10,170 bases of DNA from a virus (lineage: Duplodnaviria; Heunggongvirae; Uroviricota; Caudoviricetes): the IMG/VR virus record IMGVR_UViG_2609460354_000005, positions 1 through 10,170 of that record; one strand, 5' to 3'. The notes under the pieces were generated by a model. It was not told where the DNA came from. It was given only the letters and a program-made list of their open reading frames with translations, and did no database searches. The position numbers and the translations under genes are program-made. Of the stretch, positions 1-10,170 are shown in pieces (the first letter of the stretch is position 1; each line of letters opens with the position of its first letter).

Positions 1-91
1 TTTTGACAAACATATAATATTTTCAACAATATCCTGAGCCAGGTATATTCCAGTATAAGGCTCTGCCGGAAGGAATCTGGAAGAATGAATA

Positions 92-168
92 TGGCGCGCT
101 GTACTGGATTCGAATCAGTGACCGATTGCTTAGAAGGCAATTGCTCTGTCCGGCTGAGCTAACAACGC
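92..168 (-). tRNA. tRNA-Arg (anticodon UCU), phage-borne, argN-like
   Basis: Reverse complement folds as a 77-nt cloverleaf ending in CCA: 7-bp acceptor stem (one G-U), D-stem GCUC/GAGC, anticodon stem AUUGC/GCAAU with loop CUUCUAA (U33, UCU, A37), T-loop UUCGAAU. The T-stem pair next to the loop is A-C rather than the usual G-C. Position downstream of Q and tR' matches the ileZ-argN arrangement of Stx-type lambdoid phages (from memory). Confidence 0.75.
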
Positions 169-268
169 TGAATACCGATAATGGACCGCCATCGGGGACC
201 CGCCCCCGCACCAACAACCCTGTTATCGTGTCGTCTGCTCTTCCTGATAAGCTAATGGCGGTTTGTGA

Positions 269-344
269 TGGTGGCCCTTGCTGGATTTGAACCAGCGACC
301 TGGCGATTATGAGTCGCTCGCTCTCACCACTGAGCTAAAGGGCC
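269..344 (-). tRNA. tRNA with anticodon CAU, ileX/ileZ-like (tRNA-Ile2, lysidine-type, or Met)
   Basis: Reverse complement is a 76-nt cloverleaf GGCCCUU...AAGGGCCACCA with anticodon loop CUCAUAA and T-loop UUCAAAU. It closely resembles my recollection of E. coli ileX; Ile versus Met identity cannot be decided from sequence alone. Confidence 0.8.
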
Positions 345-380
345 GGGAGCAGAATAATAACGGTCCGTAATTAATTCCGC

Positions 381-407
381 AATAAAAAACCCGCTCGGCG
401 GCGGGTT
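381..407 (-). terminator. Rho-independent terminator, tR'-like, downstream of Q
   Basis: On the minus strand: GC-rich hairpin ACCCGC-cgccga-GCGGGU followed by UUUUUUAUU. Lies between the Q stop codon and the tRNA genes. Confidence 0.65.
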
Positions 408-448
408 GTAGAAACTCTTCTAACGTCAGGCATAAAAAGCCCATCGTT

Positions 449-483
449 ATGACGAATTTACCACAAATTCCGGAAAAATCAAC
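449..483 (-). promoter_or_regulatory. Candidate late promoter (pR'-like) with presumed Q-utilisation region
   Basis: Minus-strand TTGATT (477-482), 16-bp spacer, TAAATT (455-460), about 50-60 nt upstream of the tR'-like hairpin and just after the Q stop. Motif match only. Confidence 0.3.
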
Positions 484-487
484 CTTG

Positions 488-1309
488 TTACCTAGTTACC
501 TTTTTTAACTGCCGCTCAGCCCATGCTTCTTCAATATCAAACCGGGTCACCAGCGCATCATAGAATTTCTTAACTGTTTTTTCCCATGACGCGCGTGTTA
601 TCTGGTTTGTCACCTCGCATATAGCATTAAATGCCTCCGTTGATGGTAGTCTTTCATAGCCACGACCACCACAACGCTGGCAGTCTCTGATAACAGGCAT
701 ACCACGTTTTACCGACTCTTCACGGTGAATGGCGACACCACGCCCACGGCAATCCTTACAGGCGGTGGAAACCTCACCTTTTCCGCCACACTCCGGACAG
801 GCAACTTTTACCACCTCCCTGACTTTTTTCCATTCTTCCCAGTAAGACGGATACACACCTTTCGTACACTTTGCCCATACCGGCGGCTTACCATCCGGAT
901 ACTGGACCTTGTTTGTAAAAACTACGCTTTCAATAAATTTTTCCCCATAGCAACAAGGGCACTGCTTTTTACTCGCTGCGCTGCGGGCATAATCCTCAAA
1001 AGCGTACGAAGCCATAATGCGCATCACTAACGGTTTTATTTCTGCCGGAAGTTTTCTCAACGCCGCCACACGATCGCACCGACTGAGTGCATAATCTGCC
1101 AGTAATTCTGTTGCCCGCGCCCTGTCATTCATACTGATGCCCATTTTCCCCAGGAACGCAGAAAACCCCATCTCAGCCCGATTCTGTGTCATGCCCTGCG
1201 CGGCCATCACATCAGTGATACTCAGCGCATCTTTTGACGTTGAGGCCGATGCATCGGTCAGGCAAGGGGATTTTGGGGAGTAGTATTTCGGTAAATCTTC
1301 CAGTTTCAT
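488..1309 (-). CDS. Late-gene antitermination protein Q (phage 82 / Qin quuQ-ydfT type)
   Basis: 273-aa ORF with several CxxC zinc-finger motifs (CPCCYGEK, CPECGGKG...CKDCRGRG, CQRCGGRG). Its ATG overlaps the rusA stop (ATGA). Position immediately upstream of the terminator and tRNAs is typical of lambdoid Q genes. Confidence 0.7.
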   Translation of the reverse strand: MKLEDLPKYYSPKSPCLTDASASTSKDALSITDVMAAQGMTQNRAEMGFSAFLGKMGISMNDRARATELLADYALSRCDRVAALRKLPAEIKPLVMRIMASYAFEDYARSAASKKQCPCCYGEKFIESVVFTNKVQYPDGKPPVWAKCTKGVYPSYWEEWKKVREVVKVACPECGGKGEVSTACKDCRGRGVAIHREESVKRGMPVIRDCQRCGGRGYERLPSTEAFNAICEVTNQITRASWEKTVKKFYDALVTRFDIEEAWAERQLKKVTR

Positions 1310-1686
1310 TTTTTGACCTGCTCTTCATGCATTATGGGGTAAATCTTCACCCCCATACGTCCACCAGATACTGGCTGACCACGAACGATATTGATTTCAT
1401 CAAACTGCTCATCGTCCATTAACACTCCCGCATGCGTCAGCGCATCCAGTGGTGCTTTCAGGATATTGTCCAGGTCACGACGGCGCTTATCCGATGGCTC
1501 TGCAATAATCTTTATCGCCAGCCTTCCGGACAGGTTTAATTTCAACCGCTGCTGGCGAACAATTAGCGCCACATCACGGCGATAACGCTTTCCGGCTTCC
1601 GAGATGAAATACGTATTGCCATGACGTCGCCAGTAGGTATTCACCGTCGGCGGGTAAGGCAAAACAAATTCTATGCGTTCAGTCAT
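1306..1686 (-). CDS. rusA: Crossover junction endodeoxyribonuclease RusA (Holliday junction resolvase)
   Basis: 126-aa ORF with RusA-family signatures (VLPYPPTVNTYWRR...KRRRDLDNILKAPLDALTHAGVLMDDEQ), similar to my recollection of E. coli RusA. Lies directly upstream of Q, as in lambdoid nin regions. Confidence 0.85.
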   Translation of the reverse strand: MTERIEFVLPYPPTVNTYWRRHGNTYFISEAGKRYRRDVALIVRQQRLKLNLSGRLAIKIIAEPSDKRRRDLDNILKAPLDALTHAGVLMDDEQFDEINIVRGQPVSGGRMGVKIYPIMHEEQVKK

Positions 1687-2742
1687 TCATGCTTTCCACT
1701 TCAGGACACCCGAATTTCTCGCGTGCATTAAAAAACGAATCAGCAACAACAGCTGGCTGCCGTGTTTTTCTTCAAAATCTTTTACCCCGGCGTGCAGTTC
1801 GTTATGACATTTACGGCACAGCGGAATAACAAACAAATCATCAGCCTTTGTTCCCATCCCTCCCAGTCCATGACCAATGATGTGATGCGGATCATCTGCC
1901 TGATTACCGCACGTCATGCATTTCTGCGTTTTTACCCAGCGCGTGTATACAGGCATCTCTTCCCGTTGTGGTTTCTGGCGCTGGAGATACTGAGCCGGTG
2001 ACTCCGGATCAACGGCAATGCTTACCACCGTCTTTTCCTGTGGCGGGTTTTGCTGGTGGGCGTGAGGCATCGGCGCAAGATTTTTTGTGCGCTGCTTCAG
2101 TATGCTGGTGGCGGTCTGCTCTCCCGGCACGATGTCGCTTTCGCGGTACACCGAGCAGTTTTTTTCCGCTGGTAATCCCAGCGAGCGACGTAATACCGCT
2201 TCCGGTAGCGCGTCCGCCACCTGATTGCGGACCGCCCACCAGGATAATTCAGCCAGAGATAATTCACGCTCCTGCGTACCGCTTATTGCGTGACCGATGA
2301 CGTCAATCATCCATGCTGACAGGTTTTGATGAGCAAGTTGCTCGAGTGATTCGGATGTCTGGTCACGCAGCTGGTTGTCGCAGTGCCAGCACAACACCAT
2401 TGCGCCGGTACCATAACGGTGAATAACGGTTTCGCTGTGATGATAATCGCCGTGTGGCCACTGGCAGGATTTAATATGGCGCAACAGCCAGTCAGACAAT
2501 GCACCAGCACCACCAGCAGCACGAATTACCCGTGCGTTACTGAAAAACGGCAGCAATGTTTTGTCTTCCACCAGCGGCTGGCGAACGGCAGGAACGACCC
2601 CGGACGGCAGATTACGCATGCTTTTCGGTTCCGGCTCCACCAGTACCCGGGTATTGTGGAATACCGGCATGGATTCACGGCCCGGCTTAACGACCACCAG
2701 CCCGAGTTCCGGTACCAGAACAGGTCGAAGTAATACCCGCAC
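1687..2742 (-). CDS. DUF968-family phage protein (YdfU-like) with C-terminal Cys/His HNH-like motif
   Basis: 351-aa ORF with GTG start preceded by GGAGGT. C-terminus carries CMTCGN...HHIIGHGLGG...CRKCHNELH. Placement between rem-side genes and rusA matches ydfU in Qin. Start codon uncertain. Confidence 0.6.
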   Translation of the reverse strand: MRVLLRPVLVPELGLVVVKPGRESMPVFHNTRVLVEPEPKSMRNLPSGVVPAVRQPLVEDKTLLPFFSNARVIRAAGGAGALSDWLLRHIKSCQWPHGDYHHSETVIHRYGTGAMVLCWHCDNQLRDQTSESLEQLAHQNLSAWMIDVIGHAISGTQERELSLAELSWWAVRNQVADALPEAVLRRSLGLPAEKNCSVYRESDIVPGEQTATSILKQRTKNLAPMPHAHQQNPPQEKTVVSIAVDPESPAQYLQRQKPQREEMPVYTRWVKTQKCMTCGNQADDPHHIIGHGLGGMGTKADDLFVIPLCRKCHNELHAGVKDFEEKHGSQLLLLIRFLMHARNSGVLKWKA

Positions 2743-2743
2743 G

Positions 2744-3022
2744 TTACCTCCAGATGCGTTGCTGGAATGTACGGGACGGACGCGGTGGGCGTTCGGAGTA
2801 AGGCAATCTGACTGAGATTATCCAGTGACGGTAGTCGAGACTAAGAGCTTTCTTAACCTCGTATCCGCGCCTGCGGTAACACTGAATTATCCATTCAGCC
2901 TGCTCTTCAGTGCATGGAGGGTGCTGGAACCATTCAGACTTGAATGCGTGAGAATACCGCTCGTGCGTGCAGGCAAGAACGGGCGAATTATCAGAATTGA
3001 AATATTTTACGTTGCGTGCCAT
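2744..3022 (-). CDS. Hypothetical small phage protein (92 aa, Cys/His-containing)
   Basis: ATG at 3022 preceded by GGAGAAAACCG; stop 1 nt before the DUF968 start, so it is tightly packed in the same minus-strand operon. No family recognised. Confidence 0.45.
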   Translation of the reverse strand: MARNVKYFNSDNSPVLACTHERYSHAFKSEWFQHPPCTEEQAEWIIQCYRRRGYEVKKALSLDYRHWIISVRLPYSERPPRPSRTFQQRIWR

Positions 3023-3088
3023 CGGTTTTCTCCGGTGGCACGGTGTTACTCAGCGGGAGTTCAGCCCCGCGCAAGATTGTAGATGAGT

Positions 3089-3340
3089 TTATTCTTCTGC
3101 AAAAGCTGAAAAGCCTGCTTTTATTCCGATCTCTTTCAGTGCCTGTAATGAAGTGACAAACTCACCTTCGCGCAAGATAAATCCGTCTGTCACTCGACCA
3201 TCCACAAAATTAATTAACGCAGCCCCATTCTTTCGCAAACACATAATGCGGTAATGACTAACAAGATTTCCATTTTCAACGCACACAGCATAGAGGCCAT
3301 CTTCACAAAAAATTTTACGCAGTTCTTCGATGTTCATCAT
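3089..3340 (-). CDS. rem: Rem-like protein (Qin prophage Rem homolog)
   Basis: 83-aa ORF starting MMNIEELRKIF, preceded by GGAAGGA. Size and position next to hok match rem of K-12 Qin (recollection, not a database hit). Confidence 0.6.
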   Translation of the reverse strand: MMNIEELRKIFCEDGLYAVCVENGNLVSHYRIMCLRKNGAALINFVDGRVTDGFILREGEFVTSLQALKEIGIKAGFSAFAEE

Positions 3341-3455
3341 CAGAATCCTTCCGGATAATTAGCTCTCCCCTTTAAGGGACCATCCCTCTTATCCCTGCGC
3401 GCTACTTAAGTATTTTTGATTCTATTCCGGCACCGTCCAGAACTTCAAACGCGTG

Positions 3456-3487
3456 AAAATAAAAACAAAAACCCGCCGAAGCGGGTT
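3456..3487 (-). terminator. Rho-independent terminator at the 3' end of the hok mRNA
   Basis: Minus strand: ACCCGC-UUCG-GCGGGU (UUCG tetraloop) followed by UUUUUGUUUUUAUUUU, about 70 nt downstream of the hok stop. Confidence 0.7.
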
Positions 3488-3555
3488 AAGTGCGGGTGCG
3501 TTGAGGATGCCTGCCACATCAGAGGTGGCGAGGGATTTCTCCCTCGCCGGATCTC

Positions 3556-3711
3556 TTACTCCTCAGGTTCGTAAGCTGTGAAGACAGCGACCTCCGTCTG
3601 GCCGGTTCGGATTCGTACCTCGCAGAGGTCTTTCCTCGTTACCAGTGCCGTCACTATGACGGTTAAACAGATGACGATCAGGGCGATTAACATCGCCTTT
3701 TGCTGCTTCAT
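3556..3711 (-). CDS. hokD: Hok-family type I toxin (HokD/RelF-like, 51 aa)
   Basis: Internal ATG of the 70-aa track ORF gives MKQQKAMLIALIVICLTVIVTALVTRKDLCEVRIRTGQTEVAVFTAYEPEE: single transmembrane helix plus conserved Hok C-terminus. AAGGAGAAG Shine-Dalgarno lies 7-8 nt upstream. Confidence 0.85.
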   Translation of the reverse strand: MKQQKAMLIALIVICLTVIVTALVTRKDLCEVRIRTGQTEVAVFTAYEPEE

Positions 3712-3768
3712 AGCCTGCTTCTCCTTGCCTTTCGGCACGTAAGAGGCTAACCTACATGTGTCTAGCAT
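3556..3768 (-). CDS. mok-like overlapping reading frame (N-terminally extended frame sharing the hok stop)
   Basis: In-frame ATG 19 codons upstream of hok, same stop; mirrors the mokC/hokC arrangement in K-12 as I recall it. Confidence 0.5.
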   Translation of the reverse strand: MLDTCRLASYVPKGKEKQAMKQQKAMLIALIVICLTVIVTALVTRKDLCEVRIRTGQTEVAVFTAYEPEE

Positions 3769-3835
3769 GAAATTGGCCTCAGATTAATGTTAAGCGTCTC
3801 GCAGGACGCGTAATGTTAACTGGGGCTTTTCTCTA
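3758..3835 (+). ncRNA. Putative Sok-like antisense RNA with promoter (approximate)
   Basis: Inferred from hok/sok architecture: antisense to the mok start region. Plus-strand TTGCCT (3725-3730), 17-bp spacer, TAACCT (3748-3753) could drive it. Ends not defined; no clear terminator found. Confidence 0.3.
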
Positions 3836-4176
3836 TCTGCCGTTGGTGTTCATGCCCGAGGCAGATAGCCTCAAGCACCCGCAGCCATTCTACTTAACTA
3901 CCGTTACCTCGCCAATGTGAAATCAGTCAGAAAGGCGATCCATAAGAACAATAGCAAGACAATAAATCGCCATTACAGCCGTAATAGCCAGCGCACATTT
4001 GAGAACCAGCACCACAACCTCCTGTATTGGACGTACACCAGTCCTGATGAATATGAGGCTGTCTCGTCAGTGATTCAATACAACTATTGGGTATAGTTTC
4101 TCTGATTTTTTCTGTGGAAATGGGGCTCAACCACTAGTCATTTAATACGCAAAGTCCGATACAAGCTAACCTTCTA

Positions 4177-4200
4177 GTCCGCTTTGAGCGAAAAGCGGAC
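4177..4200. repeat. Palindromic hairpin GTCCGCTTT-gagcga-AAAGCGGAC (downstream flank of the HAD gene)
   Basis: Perfect 9-bp inverted repeat; the stem is the same as in the element at 5643-5666. No U-tract on either strand. Confidence 0.6.
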
Positions 4201-4260
4201 GTTGGAAGTTTAAAACTCGCGAACTACTCAGCGTCCATTGATGCGTATTGTGTAACGTGA

Positions 4261-4899
4261 TTAACCACAGATGATATTGAAACGTTCTCCGGAAATCTTG
4301 ACCATAATGTCAGACAGTTTGCTGACGGCATGGGCTTCAGATGATCCCAGAGCGTCAGGCTGAACAGCTATTACCGAAGCTCCACTTGCCAGCCCTGCTT
4401 TTATACCCGCAGATGCATCCTCAAATACCACGCATTCACCAGGCTCAAGGCCCAAAGCCAAAGCTGCTTTGATGTAACCCTCGGGACTTGGTTTTCCCGT
4501 CATTACATCTTCTGCACACACCATTACTATGGGTAAGGGGAGATTAGCCGCTTTCATCCTGTTTTCGGCAAGCATTCTGCCTGCAGAAGTGACAAGTGCC
4601 CAGCTATCCGGTGGCAGTTTTGATAAGAGTGCAGCGGCCCCTTTTACTTCAGTAACGCCTTCTGTCATGTTGATTTCAACCTCTTCGAGTGAGGCCGCGA
4701 TTTTATTGGTTTTCTCACCTGCACCAATAAAATGCGTCAGTGTATCAATCGTTTGCCGCCCGTGTGCGTAAGCAATCACAGCCTGAGTATCAAGACCGTA
4801 TTCTGCACAAAAATCTCTCCAGACGCTTTCCACTACGGCTGTTGAATCAACCAGCGTACCGTCCATATCGAATAAAAAACCCTTAGCGTTGAATATCAT
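4261..4899 (-). CDS. HAD-superfamily hydrolase (subfamily IA, beta-phosphoglucomutase / sugar-phosphatase-like)
   Basis: Motif I FDMDGTLVDS (DxDGT), motif II LVTSAG, conserved Lys in GKPSPEG, motif IV FEDASAGIKAG. Start placed at the second ATG (4899), which has AAGGA at optimal spacing; the track ORF begins 2 codons earlier at 4905. Confidence 0.8.
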   Translation of the reverse strand: MIFNAKGFLFDMDGTLVDSTAVVESVWRDFCAEYGLDTQAVIAYAHGRQTIDTLTHFIGAGEKTNKIAASLEEVEINMTEGVTEVKGAAALLSKLPPDSWALVTSAGRMLAENRMKAANLPLPIVMVCAEDVMTGKPSPEGYIKAALALGLEPGECVVFEDASAGIKAGLASGASVIAVQPDALGSSEAHAVSKLSDIMVKISGERFNIICG

Positions 4900-4928
4900 T
4901 GCCATTCCTTAATGGTTGCAGAAGAAAG

Positions 4929-5567
4929 TTAATCAAACCATGTTTTTTCATCACCTTTCGCTACTCTCAGGCTGACAGCAATCTGCTCAGGCACAATTCT
5001 TGAAAGCGACAATTCAGGCAGGTCGTTGACATCAAAAAAATCAGCATCGAGTGACTCATGGCTGATTGACAGGCTGCCACCTACTTCTTCACAGAGAAAA
5101 ATCAGCTTGTAAACATGCCAGGGTAAAGGCGGATGGCCGTGAAGATTACGATCCCAAACTCCCAATAGTTTAGTCACTCTGACTTTTAATCCGGTTTCTT
5201 CTTCGACTTCTCGACGCACAGCTTCAGAAGGTGTATCTCCAACATCTGCCCATCCGCCAGGAAGACTCCATAATCCATCTGCAGCCTCTTTCACCATCAG
5301 AATACGATTATTACGCAGGATAAACGCACGCACATCTGTTTTGGGCGTCGCGTAACCCGTTTCCGATACATGAAACAAATCATTGCGGCTAATATCAAAC
5401 TGCGAACTCAGCAGTCCAGCGGCAATTTCACGCAAGGCTTCATAGCGTTCCTTGTCAAAGACGTCTTTTGAATAGGTCAGGCCTGACTGCGCGAGGGCCT
5501 TTAGTCTCTGGGCAACAAAAATAAGCTTTTCTTGGGTCAACACTTCAGACATGTTTTTCATCTTCAT
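4929..5567 (-). CDS. Nudix hydrolase with N-terminal extension (Nudix_N-type, ADP-ribose pyrophosphatase-like)
   Basis: Near-canonical Nudix box GWADVGDTPSEAVRREVEEETGL preceded by an approximately 70-aa N-terminal domain. About 25-30 nt upstream of the HAD gene on the same strand. Start codon uncertain (ATGs at 5567, 5561, 5552; no strong Shine-Dalgarno). Confidence 0.8.
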   Translation of the reverse strand: MKMKNMSEVLTQEKLIFVAQRLKALAQSGLTYSKDVFDKERYEALREIAAGLLSSQFDISRNDLFHVSETGYATPKTDVRAFILRNNRILMVKEAADGLWSLPGGWADVGDTPSEAVRREVEEETGLKVRVTKLLGVWDRNLHGHPPLPWHVYKLIFLCEEVGGSLSISHESLDADFFDVNDLPELSLSRIVPEQIAVSLRVAKGDEKTWFD

Positions 5568-5642
5568 TTATGTATTCAGAGTTCCTGTTAAGGATACTGC
5601 TCAATTCAATGAAGAATAACAAATGCATCTGGCACCTGCTAT

Positions 5643-5666
5643 GTCCGCTTCTGGCACAAAGCGGAC
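5643..5666. repeat. Palindromic hairpin GTCCGCTT-ctggcaca-AAGCGGAC (upstream flank of the Nudix gene)
   Basis: Perfect 8-bp inverted repeat with the same stem as 4177-4200. Confidence 0.6.
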
Positions 5667-5763
5667 AACCACGCCAGATCTACCCTGTGCCATGAAAAAT
5701 GAGAATGTCAATTCACTCCTGAACTAATGCTTTTTAATCTAGTAACGTCTAAAATACCTAACA

Positions 5764-6165
5764 TTATCCCTGATAAAATGCCAGTATGCGCTGCATAACT
5801 TCACTCATCCGGCACTCGCGACAGATTATGTTTAGGCGACTGTCGTAGCGACGTATTTCTCCATCAGGTAACGACCAGATAAGGTCCGGATCAACCACAG
5901 CTGTTTTCTTCACCTTTGCCCTCGAGAGTTTTTTGCGGGCGTTTTGCCAGTCCTTACGCGCCTGTTCAGACGGGAATAACCCGTAGCCGGAGTTGTATAC
6001 ATCGCCACTGGCTACCAGCTCTCTGGCAAGAACGCTCATCAGATATCTAGTCGCACCTGTTTTAGCTTCCAGTTGCCGTAACGTCTCACGACCGCTCTGG
6101 CGCACGAGTTCCACCACCTGCCCTTTAATTTTTTCCCGCTCTTCTTGTGTAAAAACTTTTGCCAC
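5764..6165 (-). CDS. Hypothetical protein (133 aa) downstream of the replication initiator gene
   Basis: GTG start preceded by a strong AAGGGGGA Shine-Dalgarno, about 40 nt after the initiator stop. No family recognised; not lambda P or DnaC-like by size or sequence. Confidence 0.5.
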   Translation of the reverse strand: MAKVFTQEEREKIKGQVVELVRQSGRETLRQLEAKTGATRYLMSVLARELVASGDVYNSGYGLFPSEQARKDWQNARKKLSRAKVKKTAVVDPDLIWSLPDGEIRRYDSRLNIICRECRMSEVMQRILAFYQG

Positions 6166-6205
6166 AAGTCCCCCTTAAAATTACCTCATGACCTGAAATC
6201 AAAAC

Positions 6206-7171
6206 TTATCCTCTGAAACCAGGCGGAATTTCTGTATCCGGTTCAGAAATATGATTAACACAACGCTGTACAGGTGAACGTCCCAGGCGGATGACCAGTT
6301 CGTCCCATTTTTCGCGGAGCTTTGACGGGCTCATGATGTTTTTTACCCAGAATGGATCCCGCTGTACCCGACCAAACATTTCACAAATTTGTCTGTGGCT
6401 TCTGCCATCCAGCATCCGCATTGTGCGCACATCATTGGCCCAGACAGTCCAGTTAGGCTCTTTTGGTCGCATGATCTCGCCATCATCACTGGCGGCCTGT
6501 TCGTAGAGACCCACGATCCGCCCCCATATCCACTGCGCACACGCCAGATCCTCCTGGCTACCCCACTGGCGTTTTTTCGCACTAAACACAACTGCGCCAG
6601 GGTGCCGGATTAAAAAATCCTGTTCAGCCGTCTGCGGGTCCGGTTGCGAAGCTTCCGGACGAAAAGTGTTTTTATTCTCTGTAGTAATCTCTGTTGTATT
6701 CTCTGTAGGATCATCGGGCCATTTTGACCCGATGACATTGGGTCGTTTTGAACCAATGGAGCGTTTCATTTTGACCTCTTCCATCGTGTCATTTTGACCT
6801 GATGGAGCGGCGCATTTTGAACCGATGGATTCGCTCAATTTGCCATCATCTAAAAGCTCGCTCCCATAGTTAATCGTGTAGAAATTGGTCATATCGCGCT
6901 TTGATTTATTGAGCTTTTCACAACGCAAAAGCCCCAGCGTTTTCAGACTTGCAAACGCGCGCTTTAACGTTGACTCTGACCAGAATGGGAACTGTTCCAG
7001 CCATTGTTCCGTTGTGTTGTAAATCCAGCGAACACCATCACATTCCATGCCGGAATTGGTATCTCTCAACCAGTAATGCAACTGCTGCAACACAATGGCT
7101 TCATTTAAGCCAATCTTCATCGCAAGCTGTGTGTTTATAACCAGTGGGCGTTCAGCAAAAAGAAGGCTCAT
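6206..7171 (-). CDS. Phage replication initiation protein (lambda O-like replisome organiser) with internal origin repeats
   Basis: N-terminal helix-rich domain, a middle linker encoded by iterons, and a C-terminal domain. Start placed at the first ATG (7171); the track ORF begins at a TTG at 7225. Identity rests on the lambda-O-style architecture. Confidence 0.6.
   Translation of the reverse strand: MSLLFAERPLVINTQLAMKIGLNEAIVLQQLHYWLRDTNSGMECDGVRWIYNTTEQWLEQFPFWSESTLKRAFASLKTLGLLRCEKLNKSKRDMTNFYTINYGSELLDDGKLSESIGSKCAAPSGQNDTMEEVKMKRSIGSKRPNVIGSKWPDDPTENTTEITTENKNTFRPEASQPDPQTAEQDFLIRHPGAVVFSAKKRQWGSQEDLACAQWIWGRIVGLYEQAASDDGEIMRPKEPNWTVWANDVRTMRMLDGRSHRQICEMFGRVQRDPFWVKNIMSPSKLREKWDELVIRLGRSPVQRCVNHISEPDTEIPPGFRG
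6661..6828. repeat. Putative phage origin of replication: five approximately 23-bp-spaced iterons, three 12-bp repeats and an AT-rich tract
   Basis: Iterons of consensus ATTTTGA(A/C)C(C/T)GATGG at 6719-6736, 6744-6759, 6766-6780, 6789-6805 and 6812-6828. TCTCTGT(A/T)G repeats at 6674-6708 within an AT-rich stretch 6661-6710. All inside the initiator coding sequence, as with lambda ori in gene O. Confidence 0.65.
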
Positions 7172-7673
7172 AATTCCATCCAGCTTTTTGTTGGTATTGC
7201 TGTCGATACGCAAGTTTGAAAGCAATTGCTTTTTCTATAAGTTCGTCAGTTTCACGATCCACTACGGCAGGATCAGCAAAAAGCAGTCCGGACTCCACCA
7301 CATCGCCATATTCTTTGTTTAACCCGGCGATCATGTACGTGATGCTTTTTCCGTCACTAATTTCACGATACAACCTGAAATCATTAATCCGGATAGCCTC
7401 CATAATTGCAGGCACTAGCGCCGTGAACTTTTCACGCTTATCCCTAGTGTCGATAGCCTTCCAGCGTTCGAATATCTTCACTCGATTAACGCCAAGCGCT
7501 CGCTGATCAACCGCGCCACCTTCATCTGTGACACGCTGAACATCGATGTTCGGGCGCTCTTTCAAAGCCCAGAATGCTTCAGTGATTAATATCGTCGCCT
7601 GCTCCTGTGTCATTCCTGGTCGACATATCCAGGCATCCAGAGCCTCACGAGCCTGTTCAGGAGTGATTTTCAT
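7152..7673 (-). CDS. Hypothetical early protein (173 aa), possibly a YdaT-like / CII-analog regulator
   Basis: ATG ORF overlapping the cro-like stop and the initiator start. Sits between cro and the replication gene, where Rac carries ydaT. Family assignment is tentative. Confidence 0.4.
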   Translation of the reverse strand: MKITPEQAREALDAWICRPGMTQEQATILITEAFWALKERPNIDVQRVTDEGGAVDQRALGVNRVKIFERWKAIDTRDKREKFTALVPAIMEAIRINDFRLYREISDGKSITYMIAGLNKEYGDVVESGLLFADPAVVDRETDELIEKAIAFKLAYRQQYQQKAGWNYEPSFC

Positions 7674-7884
7674 TGTTCAACCGCCCCGCCCGCTTCGTCT
7701 TACGATATTCGTCATAAACTTTGGGATCATACTGAAGCTCCCCGCCAGATGCCTCCTGTAGACGCATCGCGCGACCTTCAGGAACTAGCTCTTGCCATTG
7801 AGAAACAGCAGATGGGTCAACGCCAGCAGCTTTCGCTACTTTGGCTTTCGTACCGTAAAAATTAATTACGTCTGATTTAAACAT
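7657..7884 (-). CDS. dicC: Cro-like repressor (DicC-type, 75 aa)
   Basis: Internal ATG at 7884 with GGAGGT Shine-Dalgarno (the track ORF starts at an upstream TTG). HTH-like segment VINFYGTKAKVAKAAGVDPSAVSQW. Divergent from the dicA-like gene. Confidence 0.6.
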   Translation of the reverse strand: MFKSDVINFYGTKAKVAKAAGVDPSAVSQWQELVPEGRAMRLQEASGGELQYDPKVYDEYRKTKRAGRLNNENHS

Positions 7885-7961
7885 CGCACCTCCAATATTG
7901 AGTTTTCTCAATGCTAATCACTCAAGGAATCTCAAGTCAAGGGTTATTAAGATATCTAAAT
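7885..7961. promoter_or_regulatory. Divergent promoter/operator region between the cro-like and dicA-like genes
   Basis: 77-bp intergenic region with perfect palindrome TTGAGttttCTCAA (7898-7911) and further CTCAAG half-site repeats at 7921-7926 and 7931-7936. Confidence 0.55.
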
Positions 7962-8369
7962 ATGAACGAGAAAACTTTAGGTCAACGCATTAGAGAAAGA
8001 CGTAAGCAGGTAGGCTTAAGTCAAAACGGTTTAAGCAAAGCTGCTGGCGTATCTGGCTCATCAATTTCATTATGGGAAAGTGACCATACAGCCCCGCGCG
8101 GGCAAAATTTGCATCGCCTCGCCGAGGTATTGCAATGTTCACCAACCTGGATACTGTTTGGCGACGAGGACAAAACACCAGCTCCCCCTGTTTCACTCGA
8201 TAGTGCCTTAGACTTATCGGAAGATGAGTTAGAGATGCTGCGTTTGTATCGCGCACTTCCTAAATCAGAGCAACAAGCACAACTCAGCGAACTCCGCGCC
8301 CGCGTTGAGAATTTTAATCGCCTGTTCACCGAGCTATTAGAGGCTCGCAAACGCAACAAGCATCAATAA
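7962..8369 (+). CDS. dicA: DicA-like HTH (XRE-family) repressor, 135 aa
   Basis: From the internal ATG at 7962 the product is 135 aa, the length of K-12 DicA. Segment LHRLAEVLQCSPTWILFGDEDK and C-terminal LSELRARVENFNRLFTELLEARKR match my recollection of DicA. Confidence 0.8.
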   Translation: MNEKTLGQRIRERRKQVGLSQNGLSKAAGVSGSSISLWESDHTAPRGQNLHRLAEVLQCSPTWILFGDEDKTPAPPVSLDSALDLSEDELEMLRLYRALPKSEQQAQLSELRARVENFNRLFTELLEARKRNKHQ

Positions 8370-8561
8370 TCATCCCTTCACAAAATTTTAAAGCCTTACA
8401 TTTCAATGTATTGGCTTTATCTTGCGCCAATACTTGAGTTTTCTCATCAAAAAACCTTGACGAAAAATAATGAGAAAACTAAATTACCTCCATCAAGACA
8501 CCGCACGGTGTTCTCAGCAAACAGTTCCGCTACCCCGGCGTTAAGGGGAAATGAGGTCAGC

Positions 8562-8717
8562 ATGGATACTATCGATCTTGGCAACAGCGAATCTCTGGTA
8601 TGTGGCGTGTTCCCCAACCAGGACGGTACGTTCACCGCAATGACGTATACCAAAAGCAAAACGTTTAAAACCGAATCTGGAGCGCGTCGCTGGCTGGAAA
8701 GAAACTCAGGTGAGTGA
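8562..8717 (+). CDS. ydfA: YdfA-like small protein (DUF1391, 51 aa)
   Basis: Internal ATG with GAGG Shine-Dalgarno; product MDTIDLGNSESLVCGVFPNQDGTFTAMTYTKSKTFKTESGARRWLERNSGE. Position after dicA as in Qin. Confidence 0.7.
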   Translation: MDTIDLGNSESLVCGVFPNQDGTFTAMTYTKSKTFKTESGARRWLERNSGE

Positions 8718-8718
8718 T

Positions 8719-9231
8719 ATGGATTTCGACACAATCATGGAAAAGGCTTACGAAGAATACTTCGAAGGCCTTGCCGAAGGCGAAGAAGCTCTCAGCTTCA
8801 GTGAGTTTAAACAGGCACTCAGAATAAGAATGTGCTCTCACAATGACGCGGAGCACAAATATGAGAAGCAAAATCAGACCGCAGAAAATTTTGTTCTGGA
8901 ACCCGGAGAAACGCTTTTCAAAATTCCCGTTACGTGCCCCATTTGCGGTTTTACATCAGAAGAACTTGACGACTCCTGTAATAATCAGGAAACAACCAAG
9001 TATGTCGAAGATGATACCGAGTGCGCACGAAGAACGATTATATCCACGAGTCCAAACTCCAGGACCAATAAATCTCACTTTGAGAGGGTGATTAATCCAC
9101 TCCCCCAAACCAATAAAAAAGATGCCGGAGGACAAAAAACCAATGGAACAACGGGATATCTGTCAAAAAAAGACGTTCCATTAAAGACAAACAACGCAGC
9201 GCCAACAACTGTAAGCGCTTTATACCAGTAA
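8719..9231 (+). CDS. Hypothetical protein (about 170 aa) at the ydfB/ydfC position
   Basis: ATG at 8719 preceded by AGGTGAG; acidic N-terminal half with a CPICGF motif, low-complexity Asn/Thr-rich C-terminus. Occupies the slot of the two short K-12 genes ydfB and ydfC. The 3' extent is uncertain. Confidence 0.5.
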   Translation: MDFDTIMEKAYEEYFEGLAEGEEALSFSEFKQALRIRMCSHNDAEHKYEKQNQTAENFVLEPGETLFKIPVTCPICGFTSEELDDSCNNQETTKYVEDDTECARRTIISTSPNSRTNKSHFERVINPLPQTNKKDAGGQKTNGTTGYLSKKDVPLKTNNAAPTTVSALYQ

Positions 9232-9552
9232 TCAATTTTCATGTTCTTAAGCGGATTTATTGGTGGTTGCGACATTGCTTAATGAATCCTTAAAACTGTG
9301 GTGATTTTAAGGATACCACCTCGCCTGACGTGGTTAAAAGCAGGCACACAACACGAAAGCGCACGGCGAAGTTCGTCTCACTGTACGGTGTCGTTAAATT
9401 TAATTCGACCGTGCGCTTCCGGTTGTGGCAACCCGCAAAATGGCGCGGCGGTAAGTATGGCGGGGGTATTCCTTCCCCCTTGAGGACACCGAGTTGTCAG
9501 GTTGACCATACGCTTAAGTGACAACCCCACTGCAACGCCCTCTGTTATCAAT

Positions 9553-9610
9553 TTTTTGGTGACGTTTGGCGGTATCAGTTTTACTCCGTGACTGCTCTGC
9601 CGCCGTTTTT
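9553..9610 (+). ncRNA. dicF: DicF small regulatory RNA (ftsZ-targeting)
   Basis: TTTTTGGTGACGTTTGGCGGTATCAGTTTTACTCCGTGACTGCTCTGCCGCCG followed by TTTTT; near-identical to my recollection of K-12 dicF, including the GGCGG/CCGCC terminator stem. Lies between the ydfC-like ORF and dicB. Confidence 0.85.
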
Positions 9611-9779
9611 AAAGTGAATTTTGTGATGCGGTGAATGCGGCTAAGCGCACGCGGAACAGTTAAAACCAAAAACAGTGTTATGGGTGGATTCTCTGTATCC
9701 GACGTTAATTGTTAACTGGTTAACGTCACCTGGAGGCACCAGGCACTGCATCACAAAATTCATTGTTGAGGACGCGATA

Positions 9780-9989
9780 ATGAAAACGTTATTACCAAAC
9801 GTTAATACGTCTGAAGGTTGTTTTGAAATTGGTGTCACTATCAGTAACCCTGTATTTACTGAAGATGCCATTAACAAGAGAAAACAAGAACGGGAGCTAT
9901 TAAATAAAATATGCATTGTTTCAATGCTGGCTCGTTTACGTCTGATGCCAAAAGGATGTGCACAATGGGTAATGACTCCAACTTATTGA
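9780..9989 (+). CDS. dicB: Cell-division inhibitor DicB with a 7-residue C-terminal extension read from the IS1 end
   Basis: ATG at 9780 with GAGGA Shine-Dalgarno. The first 62 aa ([26 protein letters not shown]...MPKGCAQ) match DicB; the frame then continues WVMTPTY into IS1 before a TGA. Confidence 0.8.
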
Positions 9990-10170
9990 TAGTGTTTTAT
10001 GTTCAGATAATGCCCGATGACTTTGTCATGCAGCTCCACCGATTTTGAGAACGACAGCGACTTCCGTCCCAGCCGTGCCAGGTGCTGCCTCAGATTCAGG
10101 TTATGCCGCTCAATTCGCTGCGTATATCGCTTGCTGATTACGTGCAGCTTTCCCTTCAGGCGGGATTCAT
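9968..10170 (-). mobile_element. IS1 insertion sequence (partial; canonical right end, continues beyond the window)
   Basis: From 9968 the plus strand reads GGTAATGACTCCAACTTATTGATAGTGTTTTATGTTCAGATAATGCCCGATGAC..., the reverse complement of the IS1 terminal inverted repeat and insB 3' region, continuous to the window edge. Confidence 0.9.
9983..10170 (-). CDS. insB: IS1 transposase InsB, C-terminal part (partial CDS)
   Basis: Minus-strand frame ending ...HYLNIKHYQ with a TAA stop at 9983-9985; the start lies outside the window. Confidence 0.8.

Follow-up and report, generated by a model that had tools for sequence, protein, structure and literature searches.

This report deals with two 24-bp palindromes that flank a pair of genes, one for a Nudix hydrolase and one for a phosphatase of the HAD superfamily, in a stretch of 10,170 nucleotides (positions 1 to 10,170 of IMG/VR record IMGVR_UViG_2609460354_000005). 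This whole stretch, which we will call the window, is the early-right region of a lambdoid prophage, with transcription on the minus strand. We conclude, with a probability of roughly three in four, that the palindromes are the boundary sites, one of type L and one of type R, of an exchangeable cassette of accessory genes situated between the replication module (with DUF977) and the hok/nin region. The same cassette is found in unrelated backbones, sequence identity goes no further than the palindromes, and the slot is taken by other cargos elsewhere, thus lending strong support to one of the origins considered in the first-pass annotation, namely recombination scars bounding an acquired module. 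Loci other than the window are cited by our own numbers (L001 and so on).

The Cassette in Unrelated Backbones

A megablast search of window positions 4100-5760 against sequenced phages recovered the segment 4176-5666, which runs from palindrome to palindrome, with 99.3% identity in P2-like phages (Peduovirus P24C9 and phage 10W). In these phages the Nudix-HAD cassette is located between the tail-fibre assembly gene G and the sheath gene FI, and the lambdoid window shows no similarity to them outside the palindromes. The exchangeable cassette, taken from site to site, thus spans 4176-5666 (minus strand); several lambdoid backbones carry it as well. In mEp460, the nearest lambdoid relative, the match with the window extends as far as the palindromes, and between variant sites stands another cargo, 1.9 kb long. 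This cargo is the defence gene PD-T7-1 (E = 4e-157; L001 4956-6305, phage mEp460_ev081), and another cargo at the window's slot (L009) matches the defence candidate PDC-S39. Since both occupy it, the lambdoid slot of the window is a defence hotspot.

A scan of IMG/VR for GTCCGCTT-N8-AAGCGGAC matched at least 119 contigs. Among the matches listed, we find at least 41 L-cargo-R cassettes, which fall into at least 22 cargo clusters and at least 16-18 clusters of backbone flanks. Among the same matches, the backbone position of the window (B1) holds at least seven different cargos (i.e., at least six besides Nudix-HAD), and the Nudix-HAD cargo (C1) is present in at least three backbones, with one more in L255. 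The latter is an island copy beside a P4-type integrase, next to yjjG-rimI-holD, where the upstream site has been removed by IS66. The cargos are typical accessory or defence modules, namely DarT-DarG, GmrSD with HEPN, SIR2 with adenosine deaminase and Ham1, PDC-S39, a glyoxalase, LysR with SDR, and several without a Pfam match. Their genes are oriented either way relative to the sites, with no fixed polarity. The deposited record of Escherichia phage 11W (NC_070902; L003 4090-5320) has many N and other ambiguous letters in the Nudix-HAD region, whose sole annotation is "similar to hypothetical protein"; this resembles the Nudix-HAD cassette in an assembly that was poorly resolved.

As for where the cargo comes from, the Nudix protein is found in identical form very widely (2,319 blocks of the indexed collection), and homologues with 60-84% identity are encoded by genes of Cedecea, Leclercia, Pseudescherichia, Pantoea, and their relatives. 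Homologues with 69-73% identity stand in ordinary chromosomal contexts in Cedecea and Pseudescherichia, where they have no sites, and a Nudix-HAD pair with 80% identity located beside an integrase has none either. On the other hand, an 84%-identical Nudix homologue lacking the HAD partner lies between two R-type sites on a metagenome contig (SRR27258020_18028; L265 3389-7168). Because the homologues in chromosomal contexts lack sites and this mobile one has them, we hold that the sites are acquired when the gene enters the mobile pool, and do not stem from its native chromosomal context. Capture of a gene that was already repeat-flanked in its native chromosomal context is unsupported for Cedecea or Pseudescherichia. 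On the L265 contig, the neighbour of the Nudix gene is a LysR-SDR cassette (the gene types of cargo C7 in L013), closed by an L-type site and followed by a gene for a MazE antitoxin.

Anatomy of the Boundary Sites

Direct reading of the letters bears out what had first been noticed, i.e., a pair of palindromes with a matched 8-bp stem at 4177-4200 and 5643-5666, the upstream one 75 nt before the ATG of the Nudix gene and the downstream one 60 nt past the stop codon of the HAD gene. The pattern GTCCGCTT-N4..12-AAGCGGAC has exactly two matches in the window and none in 200 dinucleotide-preserving shuffles (0 expected), which rules out a chance origin of the pair. The two elements had been taken for twins. 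They are in fact two distinct site types, which differ in an invariant 6-bp core: GAGCGA in type L and TGGCAC in type R. Around these asymmetric cores both types have the arms GTCCGCT(T)/(A)AGCGGAC. The L site of the window (4177-4200) reads GTCCGCTT TGAGCGAA AAGCGGAC, can also be read as 9-6-9, and has its core at 4186-4191; the R site (5643-5666) reads GTCCGCTT CTGGCACA AAGCGGAC and has its core at 5652-5657.

We derived a profile from 41 unique L sites and 57 unique R sites ascertained by their arms only. Core positions 10-15 are near-invariant in it (40-41 of 41 L sites and 54-57 of 57 R sites at each position), and positions 8, 9, 16, and 17 are variable. In total, about 20 of the 24 positions are conserved across unrelated flanks. 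The polymorphisms that do occur are divided between backbone and cargo. For a given backbone, the outer arm and the core are constant whatever the cargo, and the inner arm varies with the cargo; in the window's slot with other cargos, for example, the inner L arm is AAACAGCC, GAGCGGAC, CAACGGAA, or GAGTGGAC. The Nudix-HAD cargo, in turn, has constant inner arms in different backbones, and the outer arms differ, being GTCTGCTT-G and GAGCGGAC in P2-type backbones. Expressed in positions, 1-15 of the L site (4177-4191) track the lambdoid backbone and 16-24 (4192-4200) the cargo; in the R site, 1-9 track the cargo and 10-24 the backbone. This split places the junction between backbone and cargo within the 6-bp core or at its edge.

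Beyond the arm, conservation is found on the cargo-side flank only, as A-Y before GTCCGC at R and, in mirror image, R-T after GCGGAC at L. Since the cargo-side arm and these two further bases stay with the cargo, the cassette carries terminal inverted repeats of 10-11 bp, AAGCGGAC-RT ... AY-GTCCGCTT.

Both sites are predicted to fold into stable hairpins (-14 to -20 kcal/mol as RNA, about -10 to -11 kcal/mol as single-stranded DNA (ssDNA), z = -2.5 to -4.3). No Rfam family is found at their positions at E <= 1. Their lack of a U-tract, already pointed out in the first-pass annotation, holds on both strands, as no T-run follows either site. The terminator scan calls nothing here, and intrinsic (rho-independent) terminators are thereby ruled out.

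Some further features of the sites deserve mention. Backbones of the P2 type have outer flanks that continue the palindrome (aatctgaca / site ... site / tgtcagatt; L002 3990-4003 and 5492-5505, L247 5025-5040, as well as L028, L116, and L255). The tgtcagatt-type flank also adjoins an R site in the chromosome of Escherichia coli M-17 (next to a dynamin/patatin island) and the island integrase of L255. On an IncHI2 plasmid of Enterobacter hormaechei (NZ_CP126832; L263 5218-6734), the insertion sequence (IS) ISEsa2 of the IS110 family lies exactly within an L site, between positions 16 and 17 (GTCCGCTA AGAGCGAG / IS / AAGCGGAC-at), at the core/arm boundary to which the cassette junctions map. This suggests that an IS110-family element targets this site family, and the precision of the insertion marks the site as a discrete target that is used by other recombination systems too.

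Arrays, Duplications, and Empty Sites

Cassettes can be stacked. In several phage contigs (L116, L028, L070, and L122), tandem cassettes are joined by R-(11-18 nt)-L doublets, some of whose linkers recur, and a Pantoea plasmid carries the array L-[metallophosphoesterase]-R/L-[GGCT-family gene]-R/L-...-R/L. Moreover, single cargos in E. coli prophages are surrounded by same-type duplications (L-X-L-Y-R and L-X-R-Y-R; L246 and L249), and the metagenome contig L265 reads R-Nudix-R-[LysR-SDR]-L. Arrays of the forms R-X-R-Y-L and L-X-L-Y-R suggest that single-site circles can also integrate.

The slot in the prophage of E. coli 2017.15.01CC (L249 1935-8697) holds an array of large metabolic cargos, namely LysR with a gamma-glutamylcyclotransferase and an MFS transporter, and a BCCT transporter with DUF2254. 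A single-gene cassette on a Pantoea plasmid (L260 12001-12513) is annotated as gamma-glutamylcyclotransferase family, a likeness to the L249 gene by annotation name only.

It had been suggested that one copy of the palindrome might mark the empty site in cassette-negative relatives. No such copy was found: the P2-like Yersinia phage P37 has the order G-terminator-pF, without the cassette and without any site. The left half of its G-FI terminator (L245 440-500) reads AAGCGGAC, identical to a site arm; this may be what a deletion left behind or mere chance.

Distribution in E. coli, on Plasmids, and in Other Proteobacteria

A 48-nt R+L probe matched 2,726 of 5,426 complete E. coli genomes. Those that have any match show a median of one place, and the maximum is eight. 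Most of these places are chromosomal (3,970) and 156 are on plasmids. Four of them were sampled: two are lambdoid prophage slots (DUF977 to hok or DUF1367), a third belongs to a plasmid that has phage-type genes, and the fourth, in a chromosome, has an outer flank of the P2 type. Phage lambda has no copy of the sites. On plasmids, 2,352 records match, mainly from Klebsiella, Enterobacter, and Pantoea. Because two sampled Klebsiella IncFIB/FII plasmids share a site after hxsDBCA, many of the Klebsiella records may represent one lineage.

The family reaches further when other cores are allowed. In a scan of genome contigs, whose listed matches are mostly non-enteric, the same arms around other cores (TTGACCCA/TGGGTCAA, TGGGCCAA, TGTGCCAA, TTAGCCAA, etc.) are common among the matches listed from Alpha-, Beta-, and other Gammaproteobacteria. 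These relatives are clustered in tandem, with a spacing of about 21 nt, next to ordinary genes, mostly paralogues of the ABC substrate-binding type (ABC_sub_bind), and their behaviour resembles that of repetitive extragenic palindromic (REP) sequences and bacterial interspersed mosaic elements (BIMEs). Such clusters, as well as gene-by-gene arrays, were seen in Pseudolabrys, Hyphomicrobiales, Sphingomonas, Rhizobium, Lysobacter, Dyella, Telluria, and others (L123-L242, e.g., L197, L214, L232, L175, L226, and L150). That the arms are nearly the same in different bacterial classes points to conservation of a factor that recognises them.

The possibility that the motif is a common REP-like repeat, raised in the first-pass annotation as the result that would speak against its reading, has thus been settled in part. 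A genome-wide repeat is ruled out for E. coli by the median of one place and the range of 0-8 per genome, but the sites do occur in many unrelated contexts and their relatives in other Proteobacteria are REP/BIME-like.

Relation to Known Systems

The closest known counterpart is found around fun(Z) of phage P2 (NC_001895), for which a review (PMC8987985) credits Nilsson, Karlsson & Haggard-Ljungquist 2004 (Mol Biol Evol 21:1) with inverted repeats enabling site-specific exchange. In the P2 genome, an R-type site, GTCCACTC-TGTGCCAA-AAGCGGAC, follows gene G and a degenerate L-type site, TTCCGCTT-CTCGCTCA-AAGGAAAC, precedes pF, so that members of the family bracket fun(Z). The 24-mers were not found in print in a literature search that left aside Nilsson 2004 and Odegrip 2006, and the later hotspot papers make no mention of repeats. 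The window's cassette is therefore of a known kind: it is a lambdoid instance of the repeat-flanked cassettes first noted around P2 fun(Z) in 2004. The repeat family is the same, with the same arms and cores, and in both cases a variable cargo occupies a fixed position (Nudix-HAD versus fun(Z) at the P2 slot). The same Nudix-HAD cargo is found in lambdoid, P2-like, and island replicons with its junctions at the repeats. What differs is the slot, which here lies in a lambdoid prophage, from DUF977 to hok.

Integron gene cassettes are promoter-poor accessory genes with imperfect palindromes (attC), which form arrays and have their junctions inside the site. The cassettes described here share the palindrome-bounded and promoter-poor cargo, the arrays, and the in-site junctions, and their same-type duplications are compatible with circle integration. 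However, no intI, attI, or Pc promoter accompanies the arrays (L116, L070, L028, L249, L246, and L260), and the integrase of L255 is a P4-type island integrase. The sites are also only 24 bp long without the R''/R' cores (RYYYAAC/GTTRRRY), each cassette has two different ones, and the cargo orientation is mixed.

REP sequences and BIMEs are short, GC-rich palindromes with a GTAG-type head, which come in types with shared arms and differing centres and in doublets with linkers; they are species-specific and are associated with RAYT (REP-associated tyrosine) transposases. The likeness is evident in the extragenic palindrome types, the R-linker-L doublets with recurring linkers, and, in other Proteobacteria, the tandem clusters beside binding-protein genes. 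The differences are the 0-8 places per E. coli genome, on prophages and plasmids, the missing GTAG head, and the conservation of the arms across bacterial classes. No RAYT is present among the recurrent or annotated open reading frames (ORFs) of about 260 loci, the rest of those genomes lying outside the search.

The pdif modules are discrete modules on Acinetobacter plasmids flanked by XerC/D-type sites. Here too, short inverted arms around a 6-bp centre bracket accessory modules on mobile replicons, and the enzyme would not be encoded by the module. On the other hand, the sites have no sequence similarity to dif (compared by eye with E. coli dif), no recombinase was identified, and the two sites of one cassette have the same orientation and different cores. 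More generally, the sites do have the core-type architecture of tyrosine-recombinase sites, with inverted conserved arms around a 6-bp centre that is invariant within each of the two classes.

Promoter-early stem-loop (PeSL) cassettes of T4-type phages, reportedly described by Arbiol et al. in 2010, are similar in that repeated stem-loops flank accessory ORFs in hyperplastic phage regions, for which shuffling was proposed. They differ in that PeSLs measure about 70 bp, include a promoter, occur in one phage group only, and are considered to act by homologous recombination. A link to the R64 shufflon was also considered, as the reverse complement of the R core contains GTGCCAA, the core of the sfx sites. 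The arms are unrelated, and we treat this match as a coincidence.

How the Cargo May Be Exchanged

In our model, the cargo would be replaced through recombination inside the cores, by which the backbone would keep the outer arm and the core, and the cargo its inner arm. Exchange would presumably join like with like (L with L and R with R). As the two cores differ, this would swap the cargo without deleting it, following the same logic as engineered cassette exchange with heterospecific sites. Single-site circles could integrate as well, leaving same-type duplications behind. We give even odds to catalysis by a site-specific enzyme acting in trans, supplied by the host or by another element; it is placed in trans because no cassette encodes one. 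Only tentatively do we suggest that this enzyme is a tyrosine-type recombinase working on duplex DNA, which would fit the 9-6-9 geometry, the conserved arms, and the class-specific 6-bp centre.

Critically speaking, several observations weigh against this reading. No Pfam recombinase or transposase domain is present in the 30 cargo ORFs scanned, which cover 21 of the 22 cargo clusters, and no recombinase or transposase recurs near the other-core relatives among the loci examined. The products expected of such a system are likewise missing: no cassette circle junction was found, no E. coli genome has both lambdoid flanks within about 750 bp (i.e., an empty site), and no hybrid with an L-type left and an R-type right half occurs among 2.9 M viral contigs or among the enteric loci. 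The least conserved positions are those adjoining the core (8, 9, 16, and 17), an unusual pattern among known tyrosine-recombinase sites. Compensatory covariation was not found in the arms, where position 8/17 is essentially unpaired and the remaining changes affect one side only, so that the hairpin has no comparative support. Finally, the split of polymorphisms around the core is also expected from recombination limited by identity, and enzymatic cleavage of the core is thus unproven.

This last point leads to the most serious alternative, in which homology alone is at work. The sites would be REP/BIME-like repeats with another primary role, and crossovers would fall within the 15-24 bp shared by two copies, brought about by RecA, by annealing of the Red/RecT/Erf type, or by template switching at stalled hairpins. 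We regard this as a real possibility with appreciably less than an even chance. No enzyme has been linked to the sites, their identical-arm relatives are extragenic tandem repeats beside ordinary genes in many Proteobacteria, and crossovers confined to an identical stretch would by themselves divide the polymorphisms between backbone and cargo. Lambdoid phages are reported to recombine on short, diverged homology via Rad52-like recombinases (PMC3945230). Yet the L sites of P2-type and lambdoid backbones share only about 15 nt, and two such crossovers would be needed each time, whereas at least 22 cargos in at least 16-18 backbones are precisely bounded and the Nudix-HAD copies are 99% identical. 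A mere need for homology also leaves unexplained the conservation of about 20 of the 24 positions, the two discrete cores, and the asymmetric conservation on the cargo side, and the cargo homologues in ordinary chromosomal contexts have no repeats.

Another explanation seeks the role of the palindromes at the RNA level. The hairpins would stabilise or process a read-through transcript, thus insulating the cargo within the early-right operon (lambdoid phages) or the late V operon (P2), and recombination would be incidental. The sites are located just outside the coding regions, and the hairpins on the sense-strand RNA are predicted to be stable (-16 to -20 kcal/mol). At 11 of 15 loci (8 of 12 distinct backbones), transcription of the backbone gene adjacent to R runs into the cassette, which is a trend only, and the promoter scan detected no sigma-70-like promoter inside the cassette, so the cargo may depend on read-through. 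The conservation pattern, with the arm sequence conserved and no covariation in the stem, is nevertheless the opposite of what is usual for RNA structures. Moreover, the cargo orientation is mixed, Rfam gives no match, and the end of identity between replicons at the sites is left unexplained. We consider this explanation unlikely as the reason for the pattern, bearing in mind that an RNA-level role may coexist with any of the catalysts discussed.

The trans-enzyme model includes a variant based on hairpins in ssDNA, in which a trans-acting HUH (Y1) enzyme of RAYT or IS200/IS605 type would cut the loop and the segment between the hairpins would move. The 7-bp stem, the 10-nt loop, and the conserved central 6 nt do resemble a hairpin recognised by its loop; both sites have the same stem in direct orientation, the predicted ssDNA hairpins are stable, and the two types with linker doublets follow a REP/BIME-like grammar. 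No Y1 transposase was found in any locus examined, though, and the 30 cargo ORFs scanned contain neither tnpA (Y1) nor tnpB, as an IS200/IS605-type element or a palindrome-associated transposable element (PATE) would. With the GTAG-type head of REP sequences absent as well, no pairing covariation, and a very low copy number in E. coli, we judge this mechanism rather improbable.

The remaining suggestion of the first-pass annotation, operator sites for a regulator shared by the cassette, has only the inverted-repeat architecture in its favour and is very unlikely, because the same sites bracket more than 20 unrelated cargos on phages and plasmids without a common regulator (most lack any regulator gene), one site lies downstream of the operon, and there are two different invariant cores.

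Genes of the Cassette and Its Surroundings

The gene order in the window is repressor/Cro, a YdaT-like gene, replication genes, DUF977, Nudix-HAD, hok/sok, rem, DUF968, rusA, and Q. The first cargo gene (4929-5567, minus strand) encodes the Nudix hydrolase, which has a Nudix_N domain, belongs to the YjhB-like ADP-ribose pyrophosphatase family according to its source names, and weakly matches the defence candidate PDC-S07. The second (4261-4905, minus strand) encodes the HAD-superfamily phosphatase, whose best NCBIfam match is a sugar phosphatase model, with a score under the cutoff of that model.

Upstream of the slot, the backbone gene for the DUF977 protein (5764-6165, minus strand) is the last of the replication module and is transcribed toward the R site. 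Downstream lies the hok/sok module (3556-3880, minus strand), composed of the hok toxin ORF (3556-3768) and the sok antisense RNA (3706-3880); the latter, located beside hok and directly downstream of the cassette slot, is recognised by Rfam with 115 bits. Further away, the immunity-left region contains the gene for the antisense small RNA DicF (9554-9605, plus strand; Rfam 72.5 bits), followed by a weak, sub-threshold match to STnc100 at 9603-9812. Genes for a prophage tRNA-Arg(TCT) and tRNA-Met(CAT) are found at 92-168 and 269-344 (minus strand), downstream of the Q antiterminator gene.

Significance for Phage Defence Hotspots

The variable hotspots of P2-like phages, together with the corresponding lambdoid slots, are a main source of new anti-phage defence genes. 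On the way in which hotspot cargo turns over, Rousset et al. 2022 speculated on cos-proximal recombination and called for experiments. A pair of 24-bp sites with an invariant core, common to unrelated phages and plasmids, makes the question of cargo turnover directly testable. With the sites as a sequence handle, the boundaries of cassettes as well as new cargo can be located in both prophages and plasmids, and the sites represent a natural two-site design for cassette exchange.

In its widest form, the proposal is that of an integron-like system without an integrase of its own, in which two heterospecific 24-bp sites and a putative trans-acting enzyme would allow accessory and defence genes to be swapped and stacked among lambdoid and P2-like phages, islands, and conjugative plasmids of Enterobacterales, with other-core cousins across Alpha-, Beta-, and Gammaproteobacteria. 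We put this forward as a speculative and rather doubtful scenario. If true, such a system would supply the mechanism that has been missing to explain how cargo turns over in phage defence hotspots.

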